Shown: positions 921 through 16,824, numbered from the stretch's first letter. The stretch: DNA of 32,000 nt from Planctopirus limnophila DSM 3776 (GCF_000092105.1 NC_014148.1:2160001-2192000); one strand, 5' to 3'. Notes: a model not told the origin generated them from the sequence alone. Numbers and translations: made by a program.

Positions 921-3900
921 GGGCTATTGCCGGGTGAAAAATCCAAGACCTCTGTGGCCGTACCATCGGCACAGCCAAACAGCAACGTGGCACCGGCTCC
1001 GGTTCAGCAGCCGATGGCCGTCATTGGCATGGCATCAATCCTTCCCGGTGCTTTGACAAAAGCCGCCCTGTGGGAAGCACTCATCGCCGGCAAAGATCCC
1101 AAGTGCGAGTTTCCCAAAGAAAACAGCACCTTGGCCTCTACACTCCTCGCCGAAGAGCAGAAGTCACAAAAGCCAGAACTGACATCGCGCGGTGGTTACG
1201 TCGCAGATTTCGTTTACGATTGGAAGCGGCATAAAGTTCCACCCAAACAGGTCGCGAATGCCAATCCACTACAGTTCATGCTGCTCGATGCGGCTGACCA
1301 GGCTCTGACAGATGCCGGTTACGAAAAGAAGCCTTTTGATCGCAATCGTTCAACAGTCATTGTCGGAACGATGTTTGGAGGTGACTTTGCTGTTCAACTC
1401 CAGTTGGGTCTGCGTTTGCCACATATCCAAAAGGTGCTGCGCGAACATCTGGAAGCGAATGGCACAAAACCAGATCAGATTGACGAAGCTCTGCTTCAAT
1501 ATGAAAAGCACTTCTTGAAAGTTTTGCCGGCATTACTGGATGAAACTGGCAGTTTCACCAGCAGTACCCTCGCTTCAAGACTTTCGAAAACCTTCGATTT
1601 CCGCGGTGGGGCGTTTGCCCTCGAAGCTGAAGAAGTTTCCGGGCTGGTGGCTGTCAACCTGGGGATCAACATGCTCGAAACCGGCACGACAGATCTCGTT
1701 CTGTGTGCTGCCGGCCATCAATCGATGAGTTACAACAGCTTCGAAAAACTCGTCGAGAAAGATCTTCTGAGCAAAGGCCAATCCCGCTCGGCCTTCGATG
1801 CCGATTTCGATGGCATTCTGCCTGCAGAAGGCGTGGCCGTTCTCGTCCTGAAACGGCTTGCAGATGCCGAACGTGACGGGGATACAATCCGTGCAGTCAT
1901 TCGCGGAACTGGCCAGTGCAACCGTCGTAATGATGAAGCCGGTGCCCTGCGCGAGTCGTTTAACACGGCTCTCAAAGTTGCCAACACGTCACCCAAAGCC
2001 ATTGGTGCGATTGAAGTCTCTGGTGTCGATTGCAAAGACCGCAATTTCAACCAGCTCGAACTGGCCAAAACCATCGATCAGGAAAGTGGCCAGCCACAAG
2101 CCTTGATTGGCTCGCTGACTCCACAAATCGGTTACCTGCGTGGTGCCTCGGGAGTGGCTTCGATTGTCAAATCGATTCTCGAGTTGCAGAACGGTCAAAT
2201 CGCCCCGCAATTTGGTCTCAAAAAGCTGGCTGCGGAAGTTCAGCCTGTCGCACATGCGATTCCTCAAAAGGTCATGCCGCTCTATGCGACTGCCCCAGGA
2301 GAGAAGGGGCAGATTGCCATCAGCAACAGCTCTCTCGATGGATCGGGTTTCAGCCTGATACTCGAAAGTGCCCAGAAACTCCCACTCCGCCCGGTAACCA
2401 CTCCTTCAGTCGCAATCAGCCAACCAGCCAGTGCAAAACAGGCCCCGGCGACTCTGTCTTCCAGGCAGATAACCTCTCAGTCACGGAGGTCTAAGCTGGC
2501 TCTCGCCTTTCCTGGGCAGGGGTCTTACTACGCAGGGATGGGCGCTGACCTGATTGCAAATTACACCGAAGTCCGGCAGAAACTGGCCGAGTTCAACGAA
2601 GTCCTCAAACTCGAAAACTGCCCCGATTTTGAAACGCTGTCCGCAGACCCAGGCAACAGCATTCTCAATGCTCAACTCTCGATGCTCGTCATCGATCTGC
2701 TCTACTACACCGCCTACAAGACGGCGGGAATTCAGCCAGATTATGTCTGCGGACACAGTTATGGCGAGTTTCCTGCATTGGTGGCTGCCGGAGCACTGAC
2801 CTTCCGCAGTGCGGTCATTGCCACACGCGATCGATCGCATGTCGTGGAAGAGTTTGCCGGCAAGCAGGGGACCTTACTCGCGGTCTCTTCGGATGCTTCC
2901 ACTTTGCGCCATCTGTTGACGAGAGCACCAGTCGAAGTCTTCATTGCCAATATGAATTCACCCGAACAAACCGTTCTGGGTGGAACAATTGATGATTTGA
3001 AGCAATTCGAAAAGATCCTGCGGGAACGCCGGATAGGTAGCCGACTTCTGAAAGTCCCGGCTGCCTATCACACACCACTGCTCGAGCCGGCGCTCGTCAC
3101 TTATCGTGACTGCATTCGAGCTTTGCCAATTTCTGTTCCACAGATTCCAGTCATCAGTGGCATCGGCAATCGAGAAGTCACCGATCCGGAAGAGATTCGC
3201 GAGAATCTCGTAATGCAACTGGTCAGCCCCATGGACTTTGTGGGGATGGTTCAACTTTTAAGACAGCTTTCTGTCGGGATGGTGGTCGAAGTGGGGCCGC
3301 GTAAGGTGCTCACGCAACTGATCCAGAAAACAGCCAACGAAGGTCAGTTGGAATGCCTCCCCATGGATCCTCGCGACAATTCGTCGTCAGACTGGCAATC
3401 CACGCTCAGAAGCAAATATGAAGGATCTGTCGGCAATGCCTCACCGGCTGCTGCAACGCCTCAGAAAACGCCAGCTTCCCCAGTACCAGCACAGGCTCAA
3501 AAGCCAGTTTCGCAGCCACAGAAGCCCGCAGTTCAGCCTGCTGCAGCGAACTCATCCGTTTCGAAACCTGGCCAGACGAAATCTTGCCAGATTAATCCCA
3601 CTCCCGCAACGACCAACGTACCAACCACAGGTTCAAAAGTGACAGACCGTCCCCGTATCGTTCACTTCGACGCGACCGCGAAACGAAAAGAAGAAAATCG
3701 TCTGCGGGCAATCCAGCAGCGTGCAGAATCCGGGCGGCCTGTGGTCACATCGGCCAGTCCGAAAACAACGCAAAACTCACCTGCCATTTCGCACAGCGAC
3801 CTCGCTGAGACAAATGGACATTCCGGGCACTTCGAGAAGAATGGACACGCTTCGGATGTCACGAGCAAAGCACCAGCTCTCAACTCCGCTCAGATGAAAG

Positions 3901-6900
3901 AAGAGATCGTCCCTCCAGTCGTTGTGATCGAAGAGGTTCCAGCGGCTCCACGCAAGTTGCCCAATCGTGCTGAACTCGAAGCGTTTGTTGTCGAGTACAT
4001 CGTCGATCAGACTGGCTACCCGCCGGAGATGGTCGAACTCGAAGCTGATCTCGAAGCTGATCTGGGCATCGACAGTATCAAGAAGGCCCAGATGCTCGGG
4101 GAGTGCGCCCAGAAGTTCGAACTTCACTGGCTCGCCAATGAAGTCGCCGATCTGTCACTTGATCAGTTCCCGAATCTCGCTTCGATCATCAAGTTCCTGA
4201 CTGAAGATGCCGCCAAGGCCACTGCATCACCTTCGGAAGAACAACTTGCTGAATCCGTACCTGCCGCTGCTCTGCCAGCCGTAGCTATCGTGACTGAAAC
4301 CAGCGAAGAGGTAGTTCCACGCAAGTTGCCTAATCGTGCGGAACTTGAAGCATTCGTTGTCGAATACATCGTCGATCAGACGGGTTATCCGCCGGAGATG
4401 GTTGAACTCGAAGCGGATCTCGAAGCCGACCTCGGTATCGACAGCATCAAGAAGGCCCAGATGCTCGGCGAGTGCGCTCAGAAGTTCGAACTCCACTGGC
4501 TCGCCAATGAAGTCGCCGACCTTTCACTCGATCAGTTCCCGAATCTGGCTTCGATCATCAAGTTCCTGACCGAAGATGCCGCTAAAGCGTCTTCGAGTGC
4601 GAATACGATTGATGCGGTCGCGATTTCCAAATCGGTCGACACTGATGCCCCGAGGGAACCAGCTCATCAATCCGCCGAGACGTTGCCTGCTGTCCCCGCG
4701 ACCACAGTGACCAGCGAAACAGTGACCAGCGAAGAGGTGGCTCCTCGCAAGTTGCCCAATCGTGCGGAACTCGAAGCGTTTGTTGTCGAGTACATCGTCG
4801 ATCAGACTGGCTACCCGCCGGAGATGGTTGAACTCGAAGCGGATCTCGAAGCTGATCTGGGCATCGACAGTATCAAGAAGGCCCAGATGCTCGGGGAGTG
4901 CGCCCAGAAGTTCGAACTTCACTGGCTCGCCAATGAAGTCGCCGATCTGTCACTCGATCAGTTCCCCAATCTCGCTTCGATCATCAAGTTCCTGACTGAA
5001 GATGCCGCCAAGGCCACTGCATCACCTGCGGAAGAACAGCCTGCTGAAGCCGTACCTGCCGCTGCTCTGCCAGCTATTGCCATCGTGACTGAAACCAGCG
5101 AAGAGGTAGTTCCACGCAAGTTGCCTAATCGTGCTGAACTCGAAGCGTTCGTTGTCGAATACATCGTCGATCAGACTGGCTACCCGCCGGAGATGGTTGA
5201 ACTCGAAGCGGATCTCGAAGCTGATCTGGGGATCGACAGCATCAAGAAAGCCCAGATGCTCGGTGAATGTGCCCAGAAGTTCGAACTCCACTGGCTCGCC
5301 AATGAAGTCGCAGATCTCTCGCTCGATCAGTTCCCGAATCTGGCTTCGATCATCAAGTTCCTGACCGAAGATGCCGCCAAGGCGTCTTCGACATCACGAT
5401 CAGCATCGCATGTCGCCTCACCGGAGACCGAACTGGAACTTCAGGATTCCAGTACTGCCACAGCCACACTGACTGAACCAGCAAGTGTTTCCACACAAGC
5501 TGTGACCCAGGTCGTCGAAGCCGTGCCTGCGGTTTCAATAGTGAGAGAATCTGTCATGATTCTTCAAGGCAGCCCTTACGAAATGGGCTTCCAGCATGGT
5601 CAGAAAGAGAAAGCCGCCATCCACGGCATTCTTGAACGTCAGATCACGCGCTATGGTGCCCGACTCGACAACATGCCCGAGTTAGACGAGGCTGTCAGTG
5701 ATCCCGCACGATACTTCGGAGAAGATGAAGTCGCCGAGCTTAAAGGGATTGCCGACGGTGCCGAACTCCCTCTCGCATTCCTGATTGGCCATAACCTGGG
5801 CCTCTGCGAAGACTACGTCCCGGGCTGTGCCCAGTTTGCTGTCTCTGCCCAGGCCAATGGTGGGAAGGGAATGATCCATGCCGCCAACGAAGATTCTTCG
5901 CTCGCACTCAGTTTGACGGATTGCCTCCGCCGTGTGGTGCAGTGCCGAATTCCTGCCCATGGTTATCGACACATCGTCTTCAGCGTGAGTGGACAGGTCA
6001 GCGGCATCAATGGTACCAACGAAAAGGGCCTGACTGTCACCAGCACTTTGCTGCTGGATCGAGCCCCTCGCGACATCACGGCACCTGGCGACATCCATCC
6101 CGTGCTCATCAAGAAAATCCTCGAAAAGGCCGCCACACCGGCTGAAGCCATCGAGATCCTCAAAAGCTCCAAGCGAAATGGTGCCTGGGGAGTCTGCATC
6201 AGCCATGCCGATACCGATTCACTCTGCTATGTCGAATACGACAGTGATCAACTGGAAGTTCGCAGTGGGATGACTCGCGTCATTGGCACGAACCACTCGT
6301 TGCTGCTCGGCGCCACACATCCGACACCTCCACACTCCATGCACCGTATGGATCGCCTGCAAGAACTGCTGGCCAAGGAAGAAGCTATGGGGCTCGACTT
6401 CCCGGCTGCTGAAAAAACTCTTCGCGATCAGTTCGATGGTGGGCGTCAGCGAGTCACTGCTCATGCGACCATGAACACGATCTGCCGTGTCGATAACCAG
6501 ATCAGTGTGGTCTTTGGCCCAAGCGAGAAGACAATTCGTGTAACTCCCGGTTCATATCGCAAAGAATTTGCACATGAATTCTCCACGCTTGATGTCGATG
6601 GCTTCTTCGGTGGTGCTGATGAATTAGTCGTCAACGATGTCCCGACAAACTCAAACACGGGCTCCAGCGTCGGTTCGACATCAAAATTAATACCAGCACA
6701 GCAGACCGATCTCCCTCGATTAGCTGGTTTACCAGTTATCGATGAGCGTGTAATGCATCGGGTCATCCTGCGTCCGCGTTTGTCACCGCTCTCGCATGCA
6801 GCACAAAAGGTAAGTCTCACTGGTAAAACAGTTGTCTATGGTTTCGGTGAAGTTGCCAGGGCCTTGATCTCCAAGTTGAAGTCCACAGGCCTCGAAGTTG

Positions 6901-9900
6901 CTGTGATACCTACCTGTTTTGATGTGACAAAGCTGGAAGCTGAGTTCGAAAATCTGGCAGCGCTCAAATCTGCCAGGAATCTGATTCTGGTGGGGCCACG
7001 ATCCTCAGATGAAGTCAGTGAAGCGAGTGCTTCTGCACGATTCCTGACAGCCTTCCGTCTTTGCCAGTTATGGACTCAAAGCGGTCAGGAAATCTGCCCG
7101 CTGGCCGAGAGATCGTTAACCTTTGTCTCCTTCATGGGAGGAAATTTCGGTCTCGAAGGGAGCCCAGCCAATGCCGATGGTGGTGCCATGTCTGGCCTTG
7201 CCAAGGCCCTTCGCCGCGAACTGGCACCTCTGGTTGTCCGCACTGTCGATTTTGCCAGTGACGATGTAACAGACAGGGTCGTGGATCAGCTTGCCAATGA
7301 ACTCTCACAATCTTTTGAAATATGCGAAGTTGCCTATTCGCGTGGTGAGCGTTTTGTTGTGGCAGCCCGCCCTGTGCCGGCGACTCCGGTACCACAAAAT
7401 GGGCCAACACCTGGATCGGCATGGATCATTTCCGGTGGTGCCCGAGGCGTCACTGCGGTCGTCGCCAGAGAACTTGGAGTTCGTTATGGAGTCCACCTTC
7501 ATCTGATTGGTTCTTCACCAATCCCTGAACTGGATCCATCACTTCTGGAGGCTTCAGCCGAAGAGTTGAAAGCCTTGCGTCGGAAAATCATGTCCGAGGC
7601 GCGTGAACGTGGCGAAGTTCCTCTCGATGCCTGGAGCACATTCGAACGCAGCCTCGAAGCCCGTCGCAACCTGCGTGACATGCGGCAAGCAGGTGTTTCA
7701 GTCACTTATCATTGCTGCGATATCAGTCAACCCGATGCCGTTGAAAAAACGGTTGCAGCCATCCGTACCTTCAATCATCCGATTGAAGGGGTCATTCACG
7801 GAGCCGGGGTGGAACATGCCTGTCGATTTGAACGCAAGCAGTTACCCAAGGTCCAAAAGACCTTCGATGTCAAAGTCGAAGGCGCACGTCACCTGGCTGC
7901 AGCACTCGAACATGATCCCGTGGCGTACTTTGTGGGATTCGGTTCCACCAGTGGTCGCTTCGGTGGTTTAGGTCAGGCCGATTACTCGGCAGCTTCCGAT
8001 GCACTCGCCAAGTTCTGTAATGAACTGGGCCGCAAGAATCCCGACTGGCGGACCATTGTGGTTCACTGGCCACCCTGGGGCGAAGTGGGCATGGCAGCCC
8101 GCCCTGAAAGTAAACTCGCTCTCGAAGCCGGCGGAATGGCGTTTATGCCACCACAAGAAGGCGTCGCCTTCCTGCTGGAAGAATTGGCTTCAACGTCACC
8201 AGAACCAGAAATCCTGATTGTCGATAAGCCAGATGGCCTCGATCTCGATCGTACGCTTCCTGAACTGGCAGCATGGAAAGATTTCGCAGCCGCCCAGCAA
8301 GTGGTCGATGCCTCGCCTCTGCTGGATACCGTGATCGCCCTGACTCCTGGGGAGTATGTCGAAGTCGAAGTTCGATTGAACCCGGCACAAGATCCCTTCC
8401 TGTACGATCATCAACATCGCAATGCCCCCATTCTCCCAATGACATTCGGTCTGGAGACATTGGCTCAGGCATTCAGAGTTCTGCTACCCGCAACCGAGCA
8501 GGTGACTGTGCTCGATGGGGAAATTGTCAATCCCATGCGGTTCTTTGCGGATCGTCAAGAACTCGCCATCGCTCGCATCCGTCGCTCGGGAGACAGCTTC
8601 GAAGGGGAACTCGTCACCAGGTTCTTCAATCGCAAGGGCGTCTTGCTCAAGCACGAACGGGTGCTCGTCAAAGCCCGGCTCAAACCCGGTGTCGATGCAC
8701 CGGACGCAGCCAAACCTTTCAAATCATCCATGCAGCTCAAGAAAGTTCAGTACGCAGAAACGTGGGATCAAGTCGCTGCATTGAATCTGGGGAGTGTCTT
8801 CACGGGCCCCTCCATTCGAGGATTGACGGAGTTCGCTTACGAAGGGAAGACCTTCGAAGGGATCATCGTTCCACCACCGATCAGTGGATTTGCCGGAAAT
8901 CGCCCGGCAACCGGCTGGATGTTGAATCCTGCTGTGCTTGATGCCTGCCTCATTGGGTGTGATCGCTGGGCAGCACAGGCCGTCGAGCGGCAAAGCCTTC
9001 CCGTGAACATCGAAAAGGTCAGCCTGTATCGACCCGCCATCGATGGTGATCTCTGCCGGATTGATGGTCAGGTGCTCGAAGTCACTGAGAAAAATCTGCG
9101 ATTCAACTTCTCTCTCTGGAACTCGAAAAACGAAATCATTCTGCGGGTCGAAGGATTCTGCACTACGGCAGTAATGGGCGGTTCACAACCGGAAACATCA
9201 GCAGAAATTCCTGCCGGGATCGCTTCCAGAGCCATCCCGGAATTGAAATCCCTCAACCCTGCCGATCTGCACTTGCTGTTCCCCGTCGAAGCCGTCACAG
9301 CCAGTGCTGATCATTGGGAAGCCGAAGTGCGGATCGAGCCTTTGACAGAGCCATTAATGACGGCTCACCGGTTTAACAACTCGCCACTCCTCCCCGGAGC
9401 AGCGATGGTCGAGTTGTTTGCCGAAGCTTTGCAGCAGGTTCTTCCGGGCCCTGGTGTGGCTCGAATTCGCAACTTCTCCATTCAGCATTCGCTGCACCTG
9501 AAGGCTGCTCTCCCGCGTCGTGTGCAGGTCGTGGCACATAAAGAAGCTGATGGCTATCGCTGCCAGCTAATTGATCTCGATGGTGGTTCGATCACTCTGG
9601 CAACGGCTCTGATTGACCGAGTGGATGCAGCCAACCTGCAATTGCCACAACTCGATCAGCCCAAGGGCAGCTATAGCCCCATGAAGTATCCCGATATGGG
9701 GCCTCTGATTCATGGCGCACCACTGCGCAGCCTGCAGGCGATGTGTTCCGGGCGTGATGATGCGTGGGCCGAAATCGTTCCGACAGATATGAGCAAATTG
9801 CTTGGGCCGAATTCGAAATGTCAGCCGGTCATTCACCCGGCTGTCCTCGATGGCAGCTTCTACGCCTGTGGAATTCACGCCTGGATCAACTGCTTCGGAA

Positions 9901-10109
9901 GAGTCGAGTTACCACTTGGTTTTGAGGAACTGCTGATTCTCCGTGATCAGCCATTAAGCAAAACCGACAAACTGGTCACTCGTGTCCGATACCGCGACAG
10001 TGACGACAAAGGTTCTTCATATGAAATCTCCGTTTTCGACAAACAGAAACAACCAGTCTATGTTGTCAGGAACTATCGCAGTGTTGCTAAAGGCAGCGTG
10101 ACATTGTGA
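1..10109 (+). CDS. Giant iterative type I PKS / PUFA-synthase-like secondary-lipid megasynthase, 5'-truncated by the window edge. Domains: KS, KS0 (CLF-like), AT, 4x ACP, C45/IAT-like acyltransferase, KR, DH, DH.
   Basis: Uninterrupted 3360-aa ORF from 27. The frame stays open back to nt 3 (ARAEISRR upstream of the first Met), and only about 55 aa precede the KS active-site Cys, so the N-terminus lies outside the window. Motifs seen: DAACASS / ECHATST / NIGHALEAAG (KS), GHSYGE (AT, 2751-2768), four LGIDSIKK phosphopantetheine sites, SGGARGVT Rossmann plus ADYSAAS (KR), and two HxxxNxxxxP plus LDxxx hot-dog DH motifs. Confidence 0.95.
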   Translation, partial: ARAEISRRMVDQLRSQFPDEESLKPMNFAAANAAMLISRVHGFEGPSLVIDAACASSLMALSQASYALARGEIDMAVAGGASYSKWFGLVLFSMAMSISATGSRPFDADADGLISSDGYGLVVLKTLPKALADGDRILSVIRGIGVSSDGRGKSLWAPRQEGQILAVERAYSKNIDPASLQYIECHATSTQVGDATELKSLAQVLTGKIPAGRKIPIGSVKANIGHALEAAGIAGFIKTVLAMEHGVIPPQINFKTPNPEIEWKNVPFEVATNAREWDRPAGGMPRRAAVNSFGIGGLNVHMVLDDGLLPGEKSKTSVAVPSAQPNSNVAPAPVQQPMAVIGMASILPGALTKAALWEALIAGKDPKCEFPKENSTLASTLLAEEQKSQKPELTSRGGYVADFVYDWKRHKVPPKQVANANPLQFMLLDAADQALTDAGYEKKPFDRNRSTVIVGTMFGGDFAVQLQLGLRLPHIQKVLREHLEANGTKPDQIDEALLQYEKHFLKVLPALLDETGSFTSSTLASRLSKTFDFRGGAFALEAEEVSGLVAVNLGINMLETGTTDLVLCAAGHQSMSYNSFEKLVEKDLLSKGQSRSAFDADFDGILPAEGVAVLVLKRLADAERDGDTIRAVIRGTGQCNRRNDEAGALRESFNTALKVANTSPKAIGAIEVSGVDCKDRNFNQLELAKTIDQESGQPQALIGSLTPQIGYLRGASGVASIVKSILELQNGQIAPQFGLKKLAAEVQPVAHAIPQKVMPLYATAPGEKGQIAISNSSLDGSGFSLILESAQKLPLRPVTTPSVAISQPASAKQAPATLSSRQITSQSRRSKLALAFPGQGSYYAGMGADLIANYTEVRQKLAEFNEVLKLENCPDFETLSADPGNSILNAQLSMLVIDLLYYTAYKTAGIQPDYVCGHSYGEFPALVAAGALTFRSAVIATRDRSHVVEEFAGKQGTLLAVSSDASTLRHLLTRAPVEVFIANMNSPEQTVLGGTIDDLKQFEKILRERRIGSRLLKVPAAYHTPLLEPALVTYRDCIRALPISVPQIPVISGIGNREVTDPEEIRENLVMQLVSPMDFVGMVQLLRQLSVGMVVEVGPRKVLTQLIQKTANEGQLECLPMDPRDNSSSDWQSTLRSKYEGSVGNASPAAATPQKTPASPVPAQAQKPVSQPQKPAVQPAAANSSVSKPGQTKSCQINPTPATTNVPTTGSKVTDRPRIVHFDATAKRKEENRLRAIQQRAESGRPVVTSASPKTTQNSPAISHSDLAETNGHSGHFEKNGHASDVTSKAPALNSAQMKEEIVPPVVVIEEVPAAPRKLPNRAELEAFVVEYIVDQTGYPPEMVELEADLEADLGIDSIKKAQMLGECAQKFELHWLANEVADLSLDQFPNLASIIKFLTEDAAKATASPSEEQLAESVPAAALPAVAIVTETSEEVVPRKLPNRAELEAFVVEYIVDQTGYPPEMVELEADLEADLGIDSIKKAQMLGECAQKFELHWLANEVADLSLDQFPNLASIIKFLTEDAAKASSSANTIDAVAISKSVDTDAPREPAHQSAETLPAVPATTVTSETVTSEEVAPRKLPNRAELEAFVVEYIVDQTGYPPEMVELEADLEADLGIDSIKKAQMLGECAQKFELHWLANEVADLSLDQFPNLASIIKFLTEDAAKATASPAEEQPAEAVPAAALPAIAIVTETSEEVVPRKLPNRAELEAFVVEYIVDQTGYPPEMVELEADLEADLGIDSIKKAQMLGECAQKFELHWLANEVADLSLDQFPNLASIIKFLTEDAAKASSTSRSASHVASPETELELQDSSTATATLTEPASVSTQAVTQVVEAVPAVSIVRESVMILQGSPYEMGFQHGQKEKAAIHGILERQITRYGARLDNMPELDEAVSDPARYFGEDEVAELKGIADGAELPLAFLIGHNLGLCEDYVPGCAQFAVSAQANGGKGMIHAANEDSSLALSLTDCLRRVVQCRIPAHGYRHIVFSVSGQVSGINGTNEKGLTVTSTLLLDRAPRDITAPGDIHPVLIKKILEKAATPAEAIEILKSSKRNGAWGVCISHADTDSLCYVEYDSDQLEVRSGMTRVIGTNHSLLLGATHPTPPHSMHRMDRLQELLAKEEAMGLDFPAAEKTLRDQFDGGRQRVTAHATMNTICRVDNQISVVFGPSEKTIRVTPGSYRKEFAHEFSTLDVDGFFGGADELVVNDVPTNSNTGSSVGSTSKLIPAQQTDLPRLAGLPVIDERVMHRVILRPRLSPLSHAAQKVSLTGKTVVYGFGEVARALISKLKSTGLEVAVIPTCFDVTKLEAEFENLAALKSARNLILVGPRSSDEVSEASASARFLTAFRLCQLWTQSGQEICPLAERSLTFVSFMGGNFGLEGSPANADGGAMSGLAKALRRELAPLVVRTVDFASDDVTDRVVDQLANELSQSFEICEVAYSRGERFVVAARPVPATPVPQNGPTPGSAWIISGGARGVTAVVARELGVRYGVHLHLIGSSPIPELDPSLLEASAEELKALRRKIMSEARERGEVPLDAWSTFERSLEARRNLRDMRQAGVSVTYHCCDISQPDAVEKTVAAIRTFNHPIEGVIHGAGVEHACRFERKQLPKVQKTFDVKVEGARHLAAALEHDPVAYFVGFGSTSGRFGGLGQADYSAASDALAKFCNELGRKNPDWRTIVVHWPPWGEVGMAARPESKLALEAGGMAFMPPQEGVAFLLEELASTSPEPEILIVDKPDGLDLDRTLPELAAWKDFAAAQQVVDASPLLDTVIALTPGEYVEVEVRLNPAQDPFLYDHQHRNAPILPMTFGLETLAQAFRVLLPATEQVTVLDGEIVNPMRFFADRQELAIARIRRSGDSFEGELVTRFFNRKGVLLKHERVLVKARLKPGVDAPDAAKPFKSSMQLKKVQYAETWDQVAALNLGSVFTGPSIRGLTEFAYEGKTFEGIIVPPPISGFAGNRPATGWMLNPAVLDACLIGCDRWAAQAVERQSLPVNIEKVSLYRPAIDGDLCRIDGQVLEVTEKNLRFNFSLWNSKNEIILRVEGFCTTAVMGGSQPETSAEIPAGIASRAIPELKSLNPADLHLLFPVEAVTASADHWEAEVRIEPLTEPLMTAHRFNNSPLLPGAAMVELFAEALQQVLPGPGVARIRNFSIQHSLHLKAALPRRVQVVAHKEADGYRCQLIDLDGGSITLATALIDRVDAANLQLPQLDQPKGSYSPMKYPDMGPLIHGAPLRSLQAMCSGRDDAWAEIVPTDMSKLLGPNSKCQPVIHPAVLDGSFYACGIHAWINCFGRVELPLGFEELLILRDQPLSKTDKLVTRVRYRDSDDKGSSYEISVFDKQKQPVYVVRNYRSVAKGSVTL
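1008..2372 (+). other. Degenerate KS / chain-length-factor-like domain (KS0)
   Basis: KS-fold similarity over aa ~328-782. In a hand alignment to the upstream KS the catalytic triad is replaced: Cys->Glu536 (ALEAEEVSG, 1632-1634), His->Ser665 (IEVSG), His->Tyr703 (QIGYLRGASG). Confidence 0.8.
2490..3371 (+). other. Acyltransferase (malonyl-CoA:ACP transacylase-like) domain
   Basis: FPGQGSYY N-terminal motif, GHSYGE active-site serine motif at 2751-2768, and the downstream AAYHTPLL motif. Confidence 0.85.
3951..5384 (+). repeat. Tandem array of four ACP-encoding repeat units (3951-4220, 4320-4589, 4746-5015, 5115-5384)
   Basis: A 90-codon core (RKLPNRAELEAFVVEYIVDQTGYPPEMVELEADLEADLGIDSIKKAQMLGECAQKFELHWLANEVADLSLDQFPNLASIIKFLTEDAAKA) occurs four times in frame. 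Unit offsets are 369, 426 and 369 nt. Linkers 1 and 3 resemble each other, as do the tails after units 2 and 4 (795-nt super-repeat). Ppant serines are at 4074, 4443, 4869 and 5238. Confidence 0.95.
5553..6581 (+). other. Peptidase C45 / acyl-CoA:6-aminopenicillanic-acid acyltransferase (IAT)-like Ntn-hydrolase-fold domain embedded in the PKS
   Basis: Hand alignment to Penicillium IAT (PenDE) over aa ~1843-2185. ILQGSPYEMGFQHG matches ILCQGTPFEIGYEHG, ELKGIADGAELP matches EIRGIAKGAERD, VPGCAQFAV matches RDGCTTAY (the Gly-Cys processing site), and IGTNHSL matches VHTNHCL. Confidence 0.8.
6759..8201 (+). other. Ketoreductase region (structural pseudo-KR subdomain plus catalytic KR)
   Basis: NADPH-binding motif AWIISGGARGVTAVVARELG. 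SDR-like catalytic region GFGSTSGRFGGLGQADYSAASDAL. A Rossmann-like structural half lacking the cofactor motif lies upstream. Confidence 0.8.
8319..9176 (+). other. PKS-type (double hot-dog) dehydratase domain 1
   Basis: LYDHQHRNAPILP matches the HxxxGxxxxP motif with Asn at the Gly position (His codon 8409-8411). The second-half PAVLDACL motif is present. Confidence 0.7.
9279..10106 (+). other. PKS-type (double hot-dog) dehydratase domain 2
   Basis: TAHRFNNSPLLP matches HxxxGxxxxP, again with Asn (His codon 9366-9368). The second-half PAVLDGSFYA motif is present. Confidence 0.7.
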
Positions 10110-10915
10110 TCAGTAACGACGGAATGAGTGACTGCGGGGTCAGGGAGGGTATGACTTCTCAATTCGAGATTCATACCGCCACCAGGGCACAACTACGAAC
10201 CGAACTGCACTCAAGCAGTCTCGGAGAAAAGTTTGCCATCGGTGCGGAAATGTTCCTCGACCCTGCCCGCAAAGAATCGTGGGAACTGAGCCGATTTTTG
10301 ATCGCGAGTCGAGTTTTTACGCTGCTGAAAACTGATCGCTCTCAGGATTTCTTGTCTCCCGAGTTATCAGAGATCGAAGTATGGACTCGCAATGATCAGG
10401 GCAGGGGGATTCCACCAGCAGTTTTCATCGACAACCAACCCATCCCCTGGACATTTTCGCTCTCACATGCAGGAGACAATTACGCACTCGCCATTTGCAG
10501 GCAGCCGCAGTTACGACCCGGAGTGGATCTGGTCAACACCAGCACTTTCACTCAGGCAGCCTTACAAATGTGGTTCACGCCGGAGGAAAGAACATATCTC
10601 GCAACGCAGGATGAGCGGGCCGCAGGAACCATCTGGGCACTCAAGGAAGCGGTCTACAAAGCCACAAATTGCGGGGAACCATTTCGACCAAGGCAGATAG
10701 AAATTCTTCCAGAAGGCAAAAAGTTGATTTGCCGTGTGAGGGGGATTCATGTGCACCTTGATGAGGCAATCATCCGCTTCATCGAAAAAGATTGTCTGCT
10801 CGCAGCCGTCTTAATCAAGCAGAACTCTTTCCCGAACACTGATAAAAACCACTTCGATAACAAAACCAATTCTCACTCAATCAATGACACATCTCACGAT
10901 CTGATCATGCATTGA
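10106..10915 (+). CDS. 4'-phosphopantetheinyl transferase (Sfp-type)
   Basis: PPTase motifs PGVDLV and IWALKEAVYKA. The GTG start overlaps the PKS stop (GTGA at 10106-10109). Alternative ATG starts are at 10124 and 10151; the latter is preceded by GGAGG. Confidence 0.85.
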   Translation: MISNDGMSDCGVREGMTSQFEIHTATRAQLRTELHSSSLGEKFAIGAEMFLDPARKESWELSRFLIASRVFTLLKTDRSQDFLSPELSEIEVWTRNDQGRGIPPAVFIDNQPIPWTFSLSHAGDNYALAICRQPQLRPGVDLVNTSTFTQAALQMWFTPEERTYLATQDERAAGTIWALKEAVYKATNCGEPFRPRQIEILPEGKKLICRVRGIHVHLDEAIIRFIEKDCLLAAVLIKQNSFPNTDKNHFDNKTNSHSINDTSHDLIMH

Positions 10916-10975: not shown

Positions 10976-11740
10976 ATGATTGATTTAACCAATAAGATCG
11001 CCCTCGTCTCCGGGGCCTCACGCGGCATTGGTCGCGCGACAGCATTGCAACTTGCCCGCGCCGGGGCTGACGTGGTCATCAATTATGTACAATCTCGCGA
11101 CAGTGCTGACCGAGTGGCAGAAGAGATCGCCGCCATGGGCCGCCGCGTGGCCATTGTCCGTGCGGATGTCAGCGAGCAGAGCGATGTTCAGAGCATGATG
11201 GAATTTGTGGGCAATGAATTTGGCAGGCTCGACATTCTCGTCAGTAATGCTGCATCGGGGGGATTCCGCCCCTTGCTGGCGGCCACTCCCAAGAATTTCG
11301 AAGCCGCGATGAATACCAATGTCCGCGCACTTCTATTCCTCGTACAGGCCGCACATCCTTTGTTGGGGCAAAGTGTCGATCGAGCCAAGATTGTGGCCAT
11401 TTCGAGCCATGGCTCACACATGGCACTCCCATGGTATGGCCTGATTGGTACCTCCAAAGCAGCACTGGAAAGCCTGATTCGCCACATGGCACTTGAGTTT
11501 GGCGACCAGGGAATGAACTTCAACGTCGTCCAGGCGGGACTGGTTCCCACAGACTCCACCAAGATGATTCCTGGCTCCGAAGTCATGTTCAATGCGCGAA
11601 GCTCCAAGACCATGATGGGTGATCGCCAACTGGAACCCGAAGACGTTGCGAACGCAGTCCTTTACCTTTGCAGTCCACTGAGCGATCTGGTGCAAGGGCA
11701 AGTCTTGATCATCGACGGCGGGGCCGCCATTCACGTCTAA
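10976..11740 (+). CDS. fabL: SDR-family enoyl-[ACP] reductase, FabL-like
   Basis: 254-aa classical SDR with VSGASRGIGRA cofactor motif, the NAASGGFRP motif typical of FabL (B. subtilis NNAASGVLRP), and ISSHGS...Y..IGTSKAALESL catalytic Tyr/Lys. It aligns end to end with B. subtilis FabL as I recall that sequence. Confidence 0.7.
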   Translation: MIDLTNKIALVSGASRGIGRATALQLARAGADVVINYVQSRDSADRVAEEIAAMGRRVAIVRADVSEQSDVQSMMEFVGNEFGRLDILVSNAASGGFRPLLAATPKNFEAAMNTNVRALLFLVQAAHPLLGQSVDRAKIVAISSHGSHMALPWYGLIGTSKAALESLIRHMALEFGDQGMNFNVVQAGLVPTDSTKMIPGSEVMFNARSSKTMMGDRQLEPEDVANAVLYLCSPLSDLVQGQVLIIDGGAAIHV

Positions 11741-11832: not shown

Positions 11833-13512
11833 ATGCTCAATCTGATCTTCTCCATGATCGGCAGTTTCCTGGCACGGAAAGTCGGCCAGCAGCGAATGGC
11901 GTTTCATCAAGCCACAATGCGCCCCCGCGAATCGCAACAGGCCTTCTTAAAAGAATTACTTGCTGCCCATGCGGATTCGGCGTTTGGCAAGGATCATTTT
12001 TTTCGAGAAATTCAAACTGCGGCTGATTTCCAGAAGAGATTGCCAATCGCTGAGTACGAGAACTTTGCCCCCTACATCGAGCGCGTCAAAGCGGGTGAAA
12101 CCACCGCGATGTTCTGCAACGAACAGATTGTCATGTTCAATCTCACCAGTGGTACGAGCAGCACTCGAAAATTTATTCCCGTCACCAATCGCTACCTCAG
12201 TGATTACCGACGCGGCTGGTCGATGTGGGGCTTACAGACTTTCGAAAAGTACCCGCAGCTTTTCCTGCAGCCAAAAGTCAGCTTTGGCAGTGCCTCGAAG
12301 GAATCGGTCACGTCAGCGGGCATTCCGTGTGGCAGTTTGAGTGGCCTGACTGTCAAAATGAATCCTGCTGTCGTACGCAGCACCTATTGCCTCCCTGCTG
12401 ATACGGCTGACCATGCCGACGCTTTCGCCAGATGTTACCTCAACTGGCGAATCGGCATCCAAAGAAACCTTGGCATGGGTGTCGCCCCGAATCCGGGTTT
12501 GCTTCTCCAGTTCGCTCGCTATGGAACCGAGAACGCCGAATGTCTCATTCGCGAACTTCATGACGGCACTCATTCCTGTACGGCTGCCTTGCCGCGGCAT
12601 CTCCAGAATTGGCTCAAACGCCAGATCCGCCCAAATCGCAAACGTGCTCGCGAACTGGAGCAGATCTTTACTCGCCAGATGACTCTCCACCCGAAAGATG
12701 TCTGGCCTCAGCTCAAACTGATTGCCTGTTGGCTGGGTGGGCCAACCAGAGCTTATATCTCACAGATTCCCGAGTATTTCGGAGATGTCACATTGCGGGA
12801 TATTGGCCTGATCTCCAGTGAAAGCCGCATCAGCCTTCCCAAAGAAGACAACACACCTGCGGGTATTCTCGATGTGACCAGTGCCTATTTTGAGTTCGTA
12901 CCTGTCGACGAAATGGATTCCAGCAATCCCGTTGTGCTCGATGCTGCCGAACTCGAAACCGGCAAAGAGTATTACATCCTTTTGACAACGACCAGTGGGC
13001 TCTATCGATACAACATTCATGATGTGGTACGAGTCGTTGACTGGCACGAAAAAACACCCATGATCGAATTTCTGCATAAAGGAAGCAGAATTGCCAATCT
13101 CTTCGGTGAAAAACTCACGGAGAGCCAGATTGTCAAAGCGGTCACAACGTTCGTTCAATCAACAGCCACGCCTCTGGGCGATTTTTCACTGACTATGCCT
13201 CTGCCACATGAGCCGATGGCCTATCGGTTTTACGCCGAAATGCGAGATGCATTCTCTTCCGATTCGATCGCCACTCTGGCTCGGCAACTGGACGAATCTC
13301 TGGGTGAGCAGAACTATCTGTACCGCCGTAAAAGAGTCGAAGGCCTGCTCCATCCCCTGGAATTGATCGTCATTCCACAAGGTGCCTGGCGCGCCTGGGA
13401 TCTCCGCCAACTCGCCCGCAATGGCGGCACCATGGATCAGTACAAGCATCCTTTTCTGATCACCAATCGCAGCCTGATTGACGATCTTCAGGTTGAGCCT
13501 GTCAGTTCTTAA
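11833..13512 (+). CDS. GH3 family acyl-acid amido synthetase (GH3 auxin-responsive promoter family, ANL-like adenylating enzyme)
   Basis: 559 aa. GH3 motifs NLTSGTSSTRKFIP (12145-12180), GLYRYNIHDVVRV and NLFGEKLTESQ. The length is typical of bacterial GH3 proteins. Confidence 0.85.
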   Translation: MLNLIFSMIGSFLARKVGQQRMAFHQATMRPRESQQAFLKELLAAHADSAFGKDHFFREIQTAADFQKRLPIAEYENFAPYIERVKAGETTAMFCNEQIVMFNLTSGTSSTRKFIPVTNRYLSDYRRGWSMWGLQTFEKYPQLFLQPKVSFGSASKESVTSAGIPCGSLSGLTVKMNPAVVRSTYCLPADTADHADAFARCYLNWRIGIQRNLGMGVAPNPGLLLQFARYGTENAECLIRELHDGTHSCTAALPRHLQNWLKRQIRPNRKRARELEQIFTRQMTLHPKDVWPQLKLIACWLGGPTRAYISQIPEYFGDVTLRDIGLISSESRISLPKEDNTPAGILDVTSAYFEFVPVDEMDSSNPVVLDAAELETGKEYYILLTTTSGLYRYNIHDVVRVVDWHEKTPMIEFLHKGSRIANLFGEKLTESQIVKAVTTFVQSTATPLGDFSLTMPLPHEPMAYRFYAEMRDAFSSDSIATLARQLDESLGEQNYLYRRKRVEGLLHPLELIVIPQGAWRAWDLRQLARNGGTMDQYKHPFLITNRSLIDDLQVEPVSS

Positions 13513-13710
13513 CCAGCCACCTTACGCACCGAACACCATTACTCAGTCTGCCAACATCCTGTAAATCGGATTGTTCAGGCAACGGCATGAGATGATGGTC
13601 TGTTACTATTTCTTTTGTGATTCGATATCGGTTGCCGGGCGCACAATCGTTCTTCTGGCAACTGGAATCCCCTGAACGATCCAATCGTCCAAGCTCAGGC
13701 CGAAAACTAT

Positions 13711-14727
13711 ATGCCTTCCATTTCAAACTGCCGTCAGCAGCTCCAGCAAAAACTTTTCCCTCAGGGAATTCCCCGACTCTGGTGCCCCTCACTGACTCAC
13801 TTCTCAGCCGCCGCTCAGTTCGACGTCCAGAGAATTCGCGCTCATGTCACGGCGATGTCACCCTGGATCGGTGGACTACTGGTTCCCGGATCGACAGGCG
13901 AAGGCTGGGAGATGACCGATGACGATATTGAGCAGTTGCTGGAAATCACGTTCGAGATCGCCAACTCCCTCAATCTGCCTGTCCTGATTGGTGTCTTGAA
14001 AACTTCGACAGACAACGTGATGAGTGGCATCCAGAGGCTGCATCAATTTTCACAGCATCCACGGTTTGCCGGATTCACTGTCTGTCCACCGCAAGGTGAA
14101 AAGTTAACACAGCCCGAAATTCTGGCTGGATTACGCACGGTCTTCGATACAGGATACCCAATTGCTCTCTATCAGTTGCCACAAGTTACCAGGAATGAAG
14201 TCTCACGCGAGACAGTGCAATGGCTGGCGGCCAACTACCACAATCTCATCCTGTTCAAAGACACCAGCGGACATGACCGTGTCGCAAACTCCGGCGTCGA
14301 TCTGCAGGGCGTCTTTCTGGTTCGCGGTGCGGAAGCTGGCGGCTATGCGCCTTGGCTGAAAGAAGCGGGCGGGCCCTACGATGGATTTCTACTGAGCACT
14401 GCCAATGTCTTTGCGAAAGAACTGGCGACCATGATTCAACTCGCAGAAACGGGCCAGATCGACGAAGCAAGAGCACTATCGACTCGACTGGAAACTCTCG
14501 TACAACAGACCTTCGATTCCGTGAAATCCATCTCGGCAGGAAATCCCTTTACCAATGCCAACAAAGTGCTCGATCACATCCGGGCTTATGGAGAAAGCTT
14601 TCACATTCAGCCAGCACCACTGCTTTACAGTGGTATTTCACTTCCGTGGGAACCCATAGCTCAAGGACATGAACGACTGAAAGTGTGGCAGCAAGCACCA
14701 CTGACCGGATATCTCAACACTCTGTGA
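13711..14727 (+). CDS. Dihydrodipicolinate synthase / N-acetylneuraminate lyase family class I aldolase
   Basis: 338 aa. VPGSTGEGWEMT (GxTGE motif), LYQLPQVT (Tyr motif) and LILFKDTSG (candidate Schiff-base Lys) occur in the order expected for the DHDPS family. Confidence 0.7.
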   Translation: MPSISNCRQQLQQKLFPQGIPRLWCPSLTHFSAAAQFDVQRIRAHVTAMSPWIGGLLVPGSTGEGWEMTDDDIEQLLEITFEIANSLNLPVLIGVLKTSTDNVMSGIQRLHQFSQHPRFAGFTVCPPQGEKLTQPEILAGLRTVFDTGYPIALYQLPQVTRNEVSRETVQWLAANYHNLILFKDTSGHDRVANSGVDLQGVFLVRGAEAGGYAPWLKEAGGPYDGFLLSTANVFAKELATMIQLAETGQIDEARALSTRLETLVQQTFDSVKSISAGNPFTNANKVLDHIRAYGESFHIQPAPLLYSGISLPWEPIAQGHERLKVWQQAPLTGYLNTL

Positions 14728-14854
14728 TCTTTGCCGCAAAACACTCGATTTTTACCGTTTCCTTGGCGTGGCATCGCTGTTTATCGTCTCGTATAACGAT
14801 GACACTCGAATGACACCAAATGTTCTGATCCTGTTATCTCCATGAGGTTCTTCC

Positions 14855-15421
14855 GTGTCACAGCCCAAAGTTCTCATCGTTGTCGGAGACGCGACAGAAA
14901 CCGTCGATACGCTTTATCCTTACTACCGCTTAATTGAAGGGGGATATCAGCCTGTCGTGGCTGCTCCGGAGAAACGCAAGTATCAGATGGTTCTGCACGA
15001 AGTGAAGCCCGGTTGGACGATCACCAAAGAGTGGGAAGGCTATTCGATTGATGCAGAGATCGCCTTCAAAGACATTCGCCCTGAAGATTATGCCGGAATC
15101 TTCTTCAGTGGGGGCAGGGCTCCTGAATACATTCGCGAAGACGAAGATCTGCTGAACATCACCCGCTGGTTCTGGGAAAAGCGCCTGCCGATGGCCAGTG
15201 TTTGCCATGGAGTTGAAATTCCGGCGCGTGCTGGCATTGTCAAAGGTCTACGCATGGCGACTGTCGCCAAATGCCGCTTCGATCTTGAAATCTGCGGCGG
15301 AATCTACGTCAACGAACCCTGTGTGATCGATCGCAACATGGTGAGTGGTCGCACCTACCACGACAGCGGCCACTTTGTGGGCCCATGGATTCAAATGCTC
15401 GATCGCTGTCGCAAAGCCTGA
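14855..15421 (+). CDS. DJ-1/PfpI family protein (class I glutamine amidotransferase-like fold)
   Basis: 188 aa with a GTG start. The nucleophile elbow MASVCHG and overall DJ-1/PfpI pattern are present (VLIVVGD..., FFSGGRAPE). Confidence 0.8.
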   Translation: MSQPKVLIVVGDATETVDTLYPYYRLIEGGYQPVVAAPEKRKYQMVLHEVKPGWTITKEWEGYSIDAEIAFKDIRPEDYAGIFFSGGRAPEYIREDEDLLNITRWFWEKRLPMASVCHGVEIPARAGIVKGLRMATVAKCRFDLEICGGIYVNEPCVIDRNMVSGRTYHDSGHFVGPWIQMLDRCRKA

Positions 15422-15506
15422 AGGGGCAGGCTCCTCGGTATTTGATGTCGGTAGGACAAGTCAAACGCATGGCGCTGCGTCTTGTCCTCGTGCCTCTGCA
15501 CGACAA

Positions 15507-15527
15507 CCCGGCCACGAGTTGGCCGGG
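15507..15527. terminator. GC-rich hairpin between convergent genes (candidate bidirectional terminator)
   Basis: cccggcca (15507-15514) pairs perfectly with tggccggg (15520-15527) around a 5-nt loop. It lies 8 nt beyond the avtA stop on the minus strand and 86 nt beyond the DJ-1 stop. There is no clear U-tract. Confidence 0.35.
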
Positions 15528-15534
15528 CCACCCG

Positions 15535-16824
15535 TTATCCGCGACAAACCAGACTCACCTCGCTGGCGATCACTTCAAAAGCCTTTTCAAGCACATGTGC
15601 AGGTTGTGCAAAGTTGAGGCGAATACATTGCTCGGCATGCTTCCACGGCTCTTCCAGTCCAAAGAAGAATTCTTCTCCGGGAACAATCAGCACCTTTCTC
15701 AGCTTCAGTCGCTCATAGAGCTTTTGCGAGCTGATCGGGAGCCCGGGTAGCCAGAGCCACAGAAAAAAGGCACCTTCACTAACGTGAATTCGTCCATCAA
15801 CTGTATGTCGCTTCAACGCATCGGTCAGACACTGGACGGCAAACCGACTCTTCTCTTCGTAGAATGGACGTAAAACTTTTGGCCCGAGATCGACAATCTG
15901 GCCCGACTCGATCAGATCGGCCACAAGTTGCTGGCCTACGGTTCCATGCGAAAGCCCTGTCACGGCCGACATGGCTGTGATGGCCTTAATGATCTGCGGA
16001 GCAGCCACCACAAAAGCCGTGCGTGTCCCTGGCAAACCAAGTTTCGAGAGACTGAACGTCGTGATCATCGACTCGTTCCAAACAGGAGTCGTCGGCTGAA
16101 AAACCACCCCTGGGAATGGTGCCCCGTAAGCATTATCGATAATCACCGGCACCCGATGCCTGGTGGCGAGTTCGACGATTTCACCTGTCTCTTCATCGGA
16201 TAAAAAATTCCCGGAAGGATTCGTGGGCCTCGAAATCGCTACGGCCCCAATGGAATGTCGCGATAGAGCCGACTCCACGGCCTCCAGATCAACATGGTAC
16301 TTGAAGAGATGTGGCTGAGACTCATCAGGGGTCGATATCCTGGGCCGACAACCCACAAAGAGTCCCTCACCAAACCCCAATGGCGAATAACCGATGTATT
16401 CCGGAGTGACGGGCAATAAAATTCGCCGGTACGAGCCATCAGGCATCTGACCCGCCAGCAGGTTGAAGAGATAAAAGAAAGCCGTCTGGCCACCGCTCGT
16501 CACCGCAATATTTTCTGTGGTGACATTCCAGCCATAATGAGTGCGAAGCAGTTTGGCCAATGATTCAATGACCTGTAGATTCCCCTGAGGGGGATCATAC
16601 TGGCCCAGCGTTCGATCTATCGCTCCAGTATTGAGGAGCACCTCGATTCGCTCTCTCCAAAGCTGTGTCATTTCGGGAATCAGAGCCGGATTCCCTCCTC
16701 CCAGCATTAGCATATGCGGGTCAGAAGCCAATGCCCGGCCCAGGTCATCCATCAAGGTTAAAATTCCTGATGGCCCCGCCAGCTTTCCACCCATCCTGGA
16801 GAATTCAAACTGCATTTCGGTCAC
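15535..16824 (-). CDS. avtA: Valine--pyruvate aminotransferase (AvtA-like, PLP fold type I)
   Basis: 429 aa, colinear with E. coli AvtA as recalled: LGGGNPALIPEM vs LGGGNPAQIPEM, TSGGQTAFFYLFNLLAG vs TNGSQSAFFYLFNLFAG, SRPTNPSGN vs SRPTNPTGN, IIDNAYGAPFPGVVF, SLSKLGLPG (PLP Lys), EGAFFLWLW. The start is GTG at 16824 or ATG at 16815. Confidence 0.9.
   Translation of the reverse strand: MTEMQFEFSRMGGKLAGPSGILTLMDDLGRALASDPHMLMLGGGNPALIPEMTQLWRERIEVLLNTGAIDRTLGQYDPPQGNLQVIESLAKLLRTHYGWNVTTENIAVTSGGQTAFFYLFNLLAGQMPDGSYRRILLPVTPEYIGYSPLGFGEGLFVGCRPRISTPDESQPHLFKYHVDLEAVESALSRHSIGAVAISRPTNPSGNFLSDEETGEIVELATRHRVPVIIDNAYGAPFPGVVFQPTTPVWNESMITTFSLSKLGLPGTRTAFVVAAPQIIKAITAMSAVTGLSHGTVGQQLVADLIESGQIVDLGPKVLRPFYEEKSRFAVQCLTDALKRHTVDGRIHVSEGAFFLWLWLPGLPISSQKLYERLKLRKVLIVPGEEFFFGLEEPWKHAEQCIRLNFAQPAHVLEKAFEVIASEVSLVCRG

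Follow-up and report, generated by a model that had tools for sequence, protein, structure and literature searches.

The window, a 32,000-nucleotide stretch of the Planctopirus limnophila DSM 3776 genome (NC_014148.1:2160001-2192000), opens inside the gene of a giant, iterative PKS / PUFA-synthase-like megasynthase (1..10109, plus strand), whose Pfam domains are arranged as KS-KS-AT-4xACP-C45/AAT-KR-DH-DH. The 3535-aa open frame begins 474 bp before the window, and its ATG is at L110:13527. By its Pfam domains the synthase begins directly with a KS and lacks a loading domain; it contains an in-line C45 acyltransferase/hydrolase domain, and the domain scan found no thioesterase in the PKS system. 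The following gene, for a 4'-phosphopantetheinyl transferase (PPTase; 10106..10915, plus strand; PF01648, 4.8e-13), overlaps the PKS stop by 4 bp. It precedes a FabL-like SDR (10976..11740, plus strand; PF13561, 1.6e-60), which probably works in trans as an enoyl or keto reductase and which scores 264 bits against the FabL model NF005975, below the cut-off of 328. The GH3 acyl-acid amido synthetase comes next (559 aa; 11833..13512, plus strand), and then a class I aldolase of the DHDPS family (338 aa; 13711..14727, plus strand), a DJ-1/PfpI-family protein (188 aa; 14855..15421, plus strand) and an AvtA valine-pyruvate transaminase (429 aa; 15535..16824, minus strand). These last four genes had been named in the earlier note, and all four ORFs lie where it placed them; its gaps of 198 bp between GH3 and the aldolase and 127 bp between the aldolase and DJ-1 agree with the ORF coordinates, and the motifs that it quoted for GH3, TSGTSSTRKFIP, YRYNIHDVV and GEK, all occur in the translation.

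Upstream of the PKS we found PutA and a strong terminator-like hairpin with a T-run behind it, from which about 400 bp lead to the PKS ATG. We propose that the operon begins downstream of this PutA terminator, at a point ahead of the window; GH3, ending at 13512, would be its last gene. Promoter and terminator scans of the locus gave signals at chance level, so transcription may read through into the aldolase gene.

The GH3 protein and its association with the synthase

The three Pfam GH3 domains (PF03321, PF23571 and PF23572) all exceeded their gathering cut-off of 23.6 in this protein, with E-values of 1.8e-76, 3.6e-24 and 4.7e-22 (257.7, 85.1 and 79.3 bits) for the N, M and C domains. In the alignment with grape GH3-1 (4b2g), the nucleotide-binding motifs correspond to TSGTSSTRK, ISSES, YRYNIHD and GEK of the window protein, and S106, G107, T108, K113, S329, E330, Y391, R392, Y393, D397, G425, E426 and K427 are invariant in 31 GH3 homologues; the catalytic motifs are intact. 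The description of bacterial GH3 functions as essentially uncharacterised has been outdated since 2025, when OlsH (Sinac_1599) of Singulisphaera acidiphila was found to make N-acyl-ornithine from ornithine and a free fatty acid, with ATP and Mg2+ but without CoA or ACP (Rivera-Najera et al., J Biol Chem 2025, PMC12493201). This GH3-type lyso-ornithine-lipid / N-acyl-ornithine synthetase works with OlsI and OlsG (PMC12493201). The window GH3 scored 116.7 bits against the OlsH model NF052613, below the cut-off of 620, and is not an OlsH equivalog, so the substrates of OlsH cannot be transferred to it. The second GH3 of the genome (G000:C1:1219004-1220560) scored 95.5 bits against the same model.

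The phylogeny of GH3 proteins was consistent with their gene contexts. The 78 GH3s that follow a FabA/FabG/FabA/KS/KS/alpha-beta-hydrolase series form one clade (SH-aLRT 98), to which the second GH3 of P. limnophila also belongs, and the GH3s linked to a PKS or C45 gene fall outside this FAS-II-linked clade with one exception, the PKS-linked GH3 of G307 (L115), which sits inside it, its branch being very long (1.76). Forcing the PKS/C45-linked GH3s into one clade gave a better likelihood (p-AU 0.64). The OlsH-like GH3s of planctomycetes form a very distant clade, set apart by branches of more than 3 substitutions per site. GH3 subclades follow the type of the neighbouring synthase.

The earlier note had proposed to examine whether the order PKS-PPTase-ER-GH3-DHDPS is conserved. 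The PKS-PPTase-SDR-GH3 part is kept down to 53% GH3 identity, namely in L002 (75%), L009 and L010 (64%), L011 (55%) and L012 (53%), with SDR-to-GH3 gaps of 55-132 bp in these relatives, but the DHDPS gene is not kept at 75% identity or less. In L002, L009, L011 and L012 the PPTase occupies the same slot, as does an SDR of 72-88% identity; more distant SDRs (53-71%) occur in L056, L112, L114 and L115. A shorter order, PKS-SDR-GH3 without a PPTase match, was found in L028, L056, L114 and L115. Some loci are rearranged: L013 reads free AAT-GH3-NAD_binding_4-ACP-PKS, a free AAT directly precedes GH3 in G363, G453 and G484, and the two genes lie 2-5 kb apart in G416, G270 and G396, so that even in distant rearranged loci GH3 still adjoins a C45 acyltransferase gene or domain. 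A C45 homologue is present in 40 of the 201 genomes of the family, half of which (20/40) carry GH3 within 7 kb of C45 on the same strand; the other 20 are mostly fragmented assemblies. After GH3, MMPL/RND and GtrA genes are found in L011 and L012, and GtrA plus a sulfotransferase in L009; L111 has an MMPL gene near GH3. In the complete genome G410, of the same genus as G353, an NAD_binding_4 reductase fills the slot after PKS-PPTase-SDR and the sole GH3 lies 4 Mb away, so the GH3 partner is not universal. Taken at the level of sequence, these data support a functional association of GH3 with the PKS.

Genes downstream of GH3

The aldolase matches PF00701 (8e-19; 67.9 bits, cut-off 22.1), and its GSTGEG, LYQLP and LFKDTSG segments align with GTTGE, LYNVP and AIKEATG of DapA 3g0s; the Schiff-base lysine of DHDPS is conserved (LILFKDTSG versus IIAIKEATG of 3g0s). 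Assignment as DapA itself was rejected, as the protein reached 59 bits against the TIGR00674 equivalog cut-off of 206.15; it thus belongs to the DHDPS family without being the enzyme of the lysine pathway. Its homologues at 52-58% identity have glycosidases, sulfatases, an MFS transporter and a LysR regulator as neighbours, and the aldolase probably acts on a sugar acid or another 2-keto-3-deoxy acid. The DJ-1/PfpI protein (PF01965, 1.1e-26; 94.1 bits, cut-off 26.6) has a Cys-His nucleophile elbow, ASVCHG, aligning with ASICHG of Arabidopsis DJ-1D 4ofw, and scored 109.3 against the PfpI subfamily model TIGR01382, below its cut-off of 139.05. AvtA passed the NF006964 equivalog cut-off of 467 with 532.1 bits over residues 7-424.

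The full gene order is kept in the Planctopirus relatives L001, L003 and L014, whose GH3 is 97% identical, and AvtA adjoins GH3 only in these relatives. At the L002 locus the aldolase and AvtA were not found, and a DJ-1 copy of 89% identity is 8.5 kb distant from GH3, with unrelated genes in between; none of the three genes was found downstream of GH3 in L009, L011 or L012. The aldolase family occurs in one of 300 other genomes of the phylum (G244), where we found no match to a window-type GH3 and none to the PKS C45/KR, the only GH3 being OlsH-like. We judge the aldolase, DJ-1/PfpI and AvtA to be unrelated neighbours of the operon, AvtA being a housekeeping enzyme. The caution of the earlier note that linkage weakens beyond GH3 was well placed, as the link with the synthase stops at GH3; a part for DJ-1 in the pathway, which it had also considered, does not agree with the loss of this gene from beside the operon at 75% GH3 identity or less.

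Proposed pathway and alternative explanations

It is reasonably likely that PKS (with C45), PPTase, FabL-like SDR and GH3 make up the functional unit, an operon of four genes, in which GH3 joins the acyl chain of the synthase to an amino acid. The four ACPs of the iterative synthase would carry the acyl chain that it builds, either fatty or polyketide. As there is no thioesterase, we propose that the chain might be released from the carrier by the Ntn-type domain C45 or by the free-standing paralogue found in relatives. GH3 would then adenylate the free carboxylate with ATP/Mg2+ and link the acyl group to an amino acid through the amino group of the latter, as in the OlsH reaction, to give an N-acyl amino acid or aminolipid, which in some relatives may be exported by the adjacent MMPL/RND transporter and GtrA-like protein. 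The linking of a PKS-derived carboxylate to an amino acid by GH3, suggested before on the gene order, thus appears the most likely outcome in view of the conserved synteny, the separation of clades by context and the OlsH precedent. For the acceptor, we would make a weak guess at ornithine or a different basic amino acid, based on a single genus in which GH3 follows argB-argD-argF; the argD-argF pair of Planctopirus is located elsewhere. More tentatively, C45 and GH3 could constitute an undescribed off-loading and tailoring pair of a thioesterase-less iterative type I synthase, its product a new class of polyketide- or long-chain-derived aminolipids exported by MMPL/GtrA in Planctomycetaceae, with GH3 (amide) and the NAD_binding_4 reductase (aldehyde or alcohol) as interchangeable end-modules.

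GH3 may also be co-located and co-regulated with the PKS and act at another point, either in activating a starter or side-chain carboxylic acid or in amidating ordinary cellular fatty acids to an aminolipid, to which C45 would afterwards add the PKS chain to form an acyloxyacyl or N,N-diacyl lipid, comparable to OlsH followed by OlsI. An acyl-transfer/hydrolase-type partner adjoins GH3 in both contexts, C45 at the window locus and an alpha/beta hydrolase at the sister operon. The O-acyltransferase OlsI, of the alpha/beta-hydrolase type, works after OlsH, and OlsH prefers ordinary C14-C18 acids; however, the PKS opens on a KS without any loading domain, and GH3 enzymes are known only for forming amides with amino acids, not for loading carriers. 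We regard this explanation as unlikely. Sequence alone does not separate its order of events from that of the four-gene pathway.

It is far less probable that the adjacency of GH3 is functionally meaningless, a local synteny inherited in one lineage. PKS and GH3 do occur apart in G410, and in G470 a GH3 of the PKS-type grade has no PKS or C45 gene nearby, and planctomycete genomes keep few operons, which likewise speaks for this reading; but the adjacency is still seen at GH3 identities near 40%, in three or more gene orders and 20 genomes of many genera plus metagenome contigs, and the GH3 subclades track the synthase type. Equally improbable, in our opinion, is the earlier suggestion that the aldolase and AvtA make a non-standard amino- or keto-acid acceptor for GH3, DJ-1 being accessory. 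Both the aldolase and the DJ-1 gene share the strand of GH3 at short distances and the order persists in the closest relatives; against this stand the disappearance of these genes from the more distant loci, the near-absence of the aldolase from the phylum, the carbohydrate-gene contexts of its homologues, and the convergent orientation of AvtA, a housekeeping equivalog on the opposite strand.

Comparison with known systems

The GH3-containing four-gene operon shares features with several systems. OlsH likewise originates from Planctomycetota and has the GH3 fold and nucleotide-binding motifs of the window protein, the chemistry expected of both is ATP/Mg2+-dependent formation of an amide from a fatty acid and an amino acid, and both genes lie in a lipid-biosynthesis operon beside an acyl-transfer/hydrolase-type partner. 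In contrast to the OlsH system, the window locus lacks the alpha/beta-hydrolase OlsI and the OlsG methyltransferase (neither an alpha/beta hydrolase nor a methyltransferase turned up in the window genes scanned, which run from the PKS at position 1 to 21277), and a C45-containing type I PKS is the partner instead of the free fatty-acid pool. The plant GH3s (VvGH3-1 4b2g, JAR1 4epl, GH3.12/PBS3 4epm) align end to end with the window protein (residues 9-552, E 2.7e-32) and have three ATP/AMP-binding motifs in common with it, and a two-step adenylation and amino-acid conjugation would be expected here as well; however, they are only distant sequence relatives, and their substrates are hormones (IAA, JA, benzoates), whereas the bacterial context suggests long acyl chains.

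On the synthase side, the bacterial PUFA synthase PfaABCDE, together with the types A-T of secondary-lipid synthases (Shulse and Allen 2011, PMC3098273), shares the iterative KS-CLF-AT-multiACP-KR-DH organisation and a dedicated PPTase, but PUFA synthases have neither a GH3 partner nor a C45 domain, and PfaD is replaced by the FabL-like SDR at the window locus. GH3 is not mentioned in the text of that study, and its 'Type J' cluster of Planctomyces limnophilus, with pfaD and KS-MAT-ACP3-KR (PMC3098273), is a different locus from the window PKS operon. The planctomycete FAS-II-like/alpha-beta-hydrolase/GH3 operon has a GH3 of the sister clade (38-44% identity), placed last after a dedicated chain-builder and an acyl-releasing or acyl-transferring enzyme, as here; it differs in using discrete FabA-like, FabG and two FabF-like proteins alongside an alpha/beta hydrolase, where the window locus has a single megasynthase containing C45.

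Genes of the locus and operon limits

The ORF listing of the window confirmed the four genes from which the earlier note had drawn a lipid-amino-acid conjugate pathway, and judged by domain and motif matches their family assignments are solid. The GH3 gene (11833-13512, plus strand) matched all three GH3 domains, and the motifs reported for it, TSGTSSTRKFIP, YRYNIHDVV, and GEK, were found in its translation, where an alignment spanning residues 9-552 matches them to the nucleotide-binding motifs known from plant GH3s of solved structure; the closest public copy, from Planctopirus hydrillae, is 97% identical. The DHDPS-family aldolase (13711-14727, plus strand) keeps the Schiff-base lysine and scores far under the dapA cut-off, the DJ-1/PfpI protein (14855-15421, plus strand) keeps its Cys-His elbow, and the AvtA transaminase (15535-16824, minus strand) is a valine-pyruvate transaminase equivalog (532 bits vs a cut-off of 467). 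On the 5' side of GH3 lie a megasynthase (KS-KS-AT-4xACP-C45-KR-DH-DH), a PPTase whose start overlaps the megasynthase stop codon, and a FabL-like SDR.

The synthase ORF starts 474 bp 5' of the window. Ahead of it lies putA (L110:9745-13120 in the region upstream of the window, G000:C1:2155744-2159119), encoding a 1090-aa bifunctional proline dehydrogenase and aldehyde dehydrogenase. At the end of putA stand a strong inverted repeat and, behind it, a T-run (AGACCGGCCAAT...ATTGGCCGGTTTTTGG); a spacer of about 400 bp then leads to the PKS start codon. At the other end, folding of the 198 bp that separate GH3 from the aldolase gave a z-score of -1.74 without any hairpin leading into a T-run, and scans for promoter and terminator consensus sequences across 9800-17400 gave counts equal to the shuffled expectation. 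Synteny would place the operon end at 13512.

Linkage of GH3 to the synthase

The order PKS-PPTase-SDR-GH3 recurs in relatives with progressively diverged GH3 (L002, 75% identical; L009/L010, 64%; L011, 55%; L012, 53%), with SDR-to-GH3 gaps of 55-132 bp, and PKS-SDR-GH3 was found without a PPTase match in four further loci (L028, L056, L114, and L115). At more distant loci the gene order is altered, and GH3 still stands beside a C45 homologue: one locus (L013) reads free-standing C45 protein (AAT)-GH3-NAD_binding_4-ACP-PKS, three genomes (G363, G453, and G484) have GH3 directly after a free AAT, and the Polystyrenella-like genome G270 has the two 5 kb apart, with a reductase-ACP-PKS(C45)-SDR block 555 kb away. 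A C45 homologue occurs in 40 of the 201 sampled family genomes, 20 of which carry a same-strand GH3 within 7 kb of it; the remaining C45-bearing genomes are mostly fragmented assemblies with C45 and GH3 on separate contigs. In the 2-kb AAT-GH3 spacer of G416 (L116), the ORF appears non-coding and gave no PDB match. This retention of synteny in diverged relatives argues that GH3 is tied to the synthase, as the earlier note had held, and that the real feature of the locus is a conserved PKS(C45)-PPTase-SDR-GH3 operon. The wider PKS-PPTase-ER-GH3-DHDPS neighborhood, which that note had proposed to look for in related genomes, held up as far as GH3, but the DHDPS-family gene is kept beside GH3 only in Planctopirus genomes at 97% identity.

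GH3 is nevertheless replaceable in the PKS locus. In G410, a complete genome of another genus, an NAD_binding_4 gene occupies the GH3 slot after a C45-bearing PKS-PPTase-SDR (L112, G410:C1:6366000-6385900), and in two loci (L013 and L008) the reductase lies 5' of the PKS. From this arrangement, GH3 and the NAD_binding_4 reductase look like interchangeable end modules. The reductase itself is thioester-reductase-like.

The genes 3' of GH3 differ among relatives, with GtrA and a sulfotransferase in L009, and an MMPL/RND transporter and GtrA in L011 and L012. In one PKS-SDR-GH3 locus, an O-methyltransferase (PF00891, L056:12007-13134) follows GH3, which suggests that the product is tailored differently in different lineages. 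The aldolase, DJ-1, and AvtA keep synteny with GH3 only in Planctopirus genomes at 97% identity, a level at which the synteny of these three genes is uninformative on function. The Planctomyces sp. MAG locus L002 lacks the aldolase and AvtA, and its DJ-1 (89% identical) lies 8.5 kb from GH3, behind unrelated genes for an RNA ligase (PHA02142-type OB fold), MBOAT_2, a XylR/AraC regulator, a GFO/IDH/MocA oxidoreductase, and a xylose-isomerase-like TIM-barrel protein; this interval (L002:8112-16630) is a local indel hotspot. The aldolase was found in one of 300 other phylum genomes (2/301 with the window genome), and neither the window GH3 nor the C45-KR portion of the synthase had a match in that genome, which carried an OlsH-like GH3. 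Many aldolase homologues of 52-58% identity occur in Armatimonas, Tuwongella, and Pirellulaceae, adjoining glycosidases, sulfatases, an MFS transporter, an SDR, and a LysR regulator, that is, in carbohydrate contexts, and the patchy distribution suggests that the aldolase was gained horizontally. AvtA, encoded on the opposite strand, qualifies as a housekeeping equivalog. The part in building an acceptor that the earlier note had suggested for the aldolase and the transaminase is not borne out, and comparative genomics indicates that aldolase, DJ-1, and AvtA are unrelated neighbors.

GH3 phylogeny

Most of the 80 metagenomic loci fetched with the GH3 alignment hold a different and very conserved operon, namely FabA-like, FabG, FabA-like, KS, KS, alpha/beta hydrolase, and GH3, with the full set in 46 loci and at least the hydrolase in 18 short contigs; an example is L036:3710-11689 (63 other metagenome loci among L015-L093), in which both KS are FabF-like. 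The 78 GH3s of this FAS-II type, including the genome's second GH3, form one clade (SH-aLRT 98), and the PKS/C45-linked GH3s fell outside it in the tree built before five genomes were added. A tree constrained to a single PKS/C45-linked clade had a log-likelihood 10.6 units above that of the free search (p-AU 0.64). OlsH-like GH3s of the phylum form a third, very distant clade. Adding the five genomes gave the same picture with two exceptions. In G307, GH3 (L115, G307:C232:8229-9815) follows PKS-SDR and yet lies inside the FAS-II-linked clade on a branch of length 1.76; either the synthase recruited this GH3 independently, or the placement is an artefact of the long branch. The G470 GH3 belongs to the PKS-type grade and has an MMPL gene but no PKS nearby. 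In these trees, GH3 phylogeny follows genomic context apart from these two cases.

The second GH3 of the window's genome (G000:C1:1219004-1220560, L094:9882-11705, minus strand) is 40% identical. Its neighborhood has no FAS or hydrolase genes; a 640-aa protein without a Pfam match lies 3', DUF1559 proteins occur around it, and a cluster with an SNF-family Na+/amino-acid-type symporter is divergent on the 5' side. Considered as a clue to GH3 function, none of these neighbors was informative.

A proposed route and its relation to OlsH

As the most probable route, we propose that the TE-less synthase would build the chain, that the C45 Ntn-type domain would remove it from the ACP, and that GH3, whose substrate must be a free carboxylate, would then adenylate the freed acid and ligate it to an amino acid. 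In some lineages, MMPL and GtrA proteins may export the lipid. The sister operon, with its hydrolase followed by GH3, and the parallel with OlsH and its alpha/beta-hydrolase partner OlsI support the general logic of a release/transfer enzyme plus GH3. As to the acceptor, free C45/AAT, argB, argD, argF, and GH3 lie on one strand in G270 (L007:11269-17820), with a RidA-like gene on the opposite strand between AAT and argB, and G396, of the same genus, has equal AAT-to-GH3 spacing; argD-argF is a housekeeping cluster situated elsewhere in Planctopirus. The argB-argD-argF-GH3 adjacency in this one genus points weakly to ornithine or a related amino acid as the acceptor. Of the interpretation in the earlier note, the association of GH3 with the PKS operon stands, but not the inclusion of aldolase, DJ-1, and AvtA; dropping these from the pathway spares effort on a wrong model.

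With this locus, a second GH3 lineage comes to light that is phylogenetically distinct and tied to a TE-less type I megasynthase. If the proposed route is true, N-acyl amino acids or aminolipids would be reached from a polyketide/fatty-acid assembly line in a new way, the route would explain product release by C45-bearing synthases, and C45 plus GH3, with or without MMPL/GtrA or a reductase, would be a genome-mining signature for an unexplored lipid class of Planctomycetota. Planctopirus limnophila is culturable and genetically tractable, and the model is directly testable there.

To our knowledge, OlsH (2025) is the sole bacterial GH3 with a known function. This enzyme, from the planctomycete Singulisphaera acidiphila, couples a free fatty acid to ornithine with ATP and Mg2+, neither CoA nor ACP being involved, and the N-acyl-ornithine so formed receives its second acyl chain from OlsI (PMC12493201); the earlier note's premise that bacterial GH3 functions are essentially uncharacterized is outdated. 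At 116.7 bits against a cut-off of 620, the window GH3 does not qualify as an OlsH equivalog, and none of the 301 genomes sampled across the phylum reached that cut-off. According to a 2026 review (PMC12971839), which makes no reference to polyketide synthases, OlsH homologues occur in Isosphaerales and Gemmatales, and in the literature on GH3, polyketide synthases, and planctomycetes we found no description of GH3 linked to C45 or to a type I synthase. The 'Type J' cluster of Planctomyces limnophilus (Shulse and Allen, PMC3098273) is another locus. The window operon adds a new variation to the theme of fatty-acid/amino-acid ligation known from OlsH. OlsH/OlsI and the sister operon each pair GH3 with a release/transfer-type enzyme, a role that C45 would fill here.
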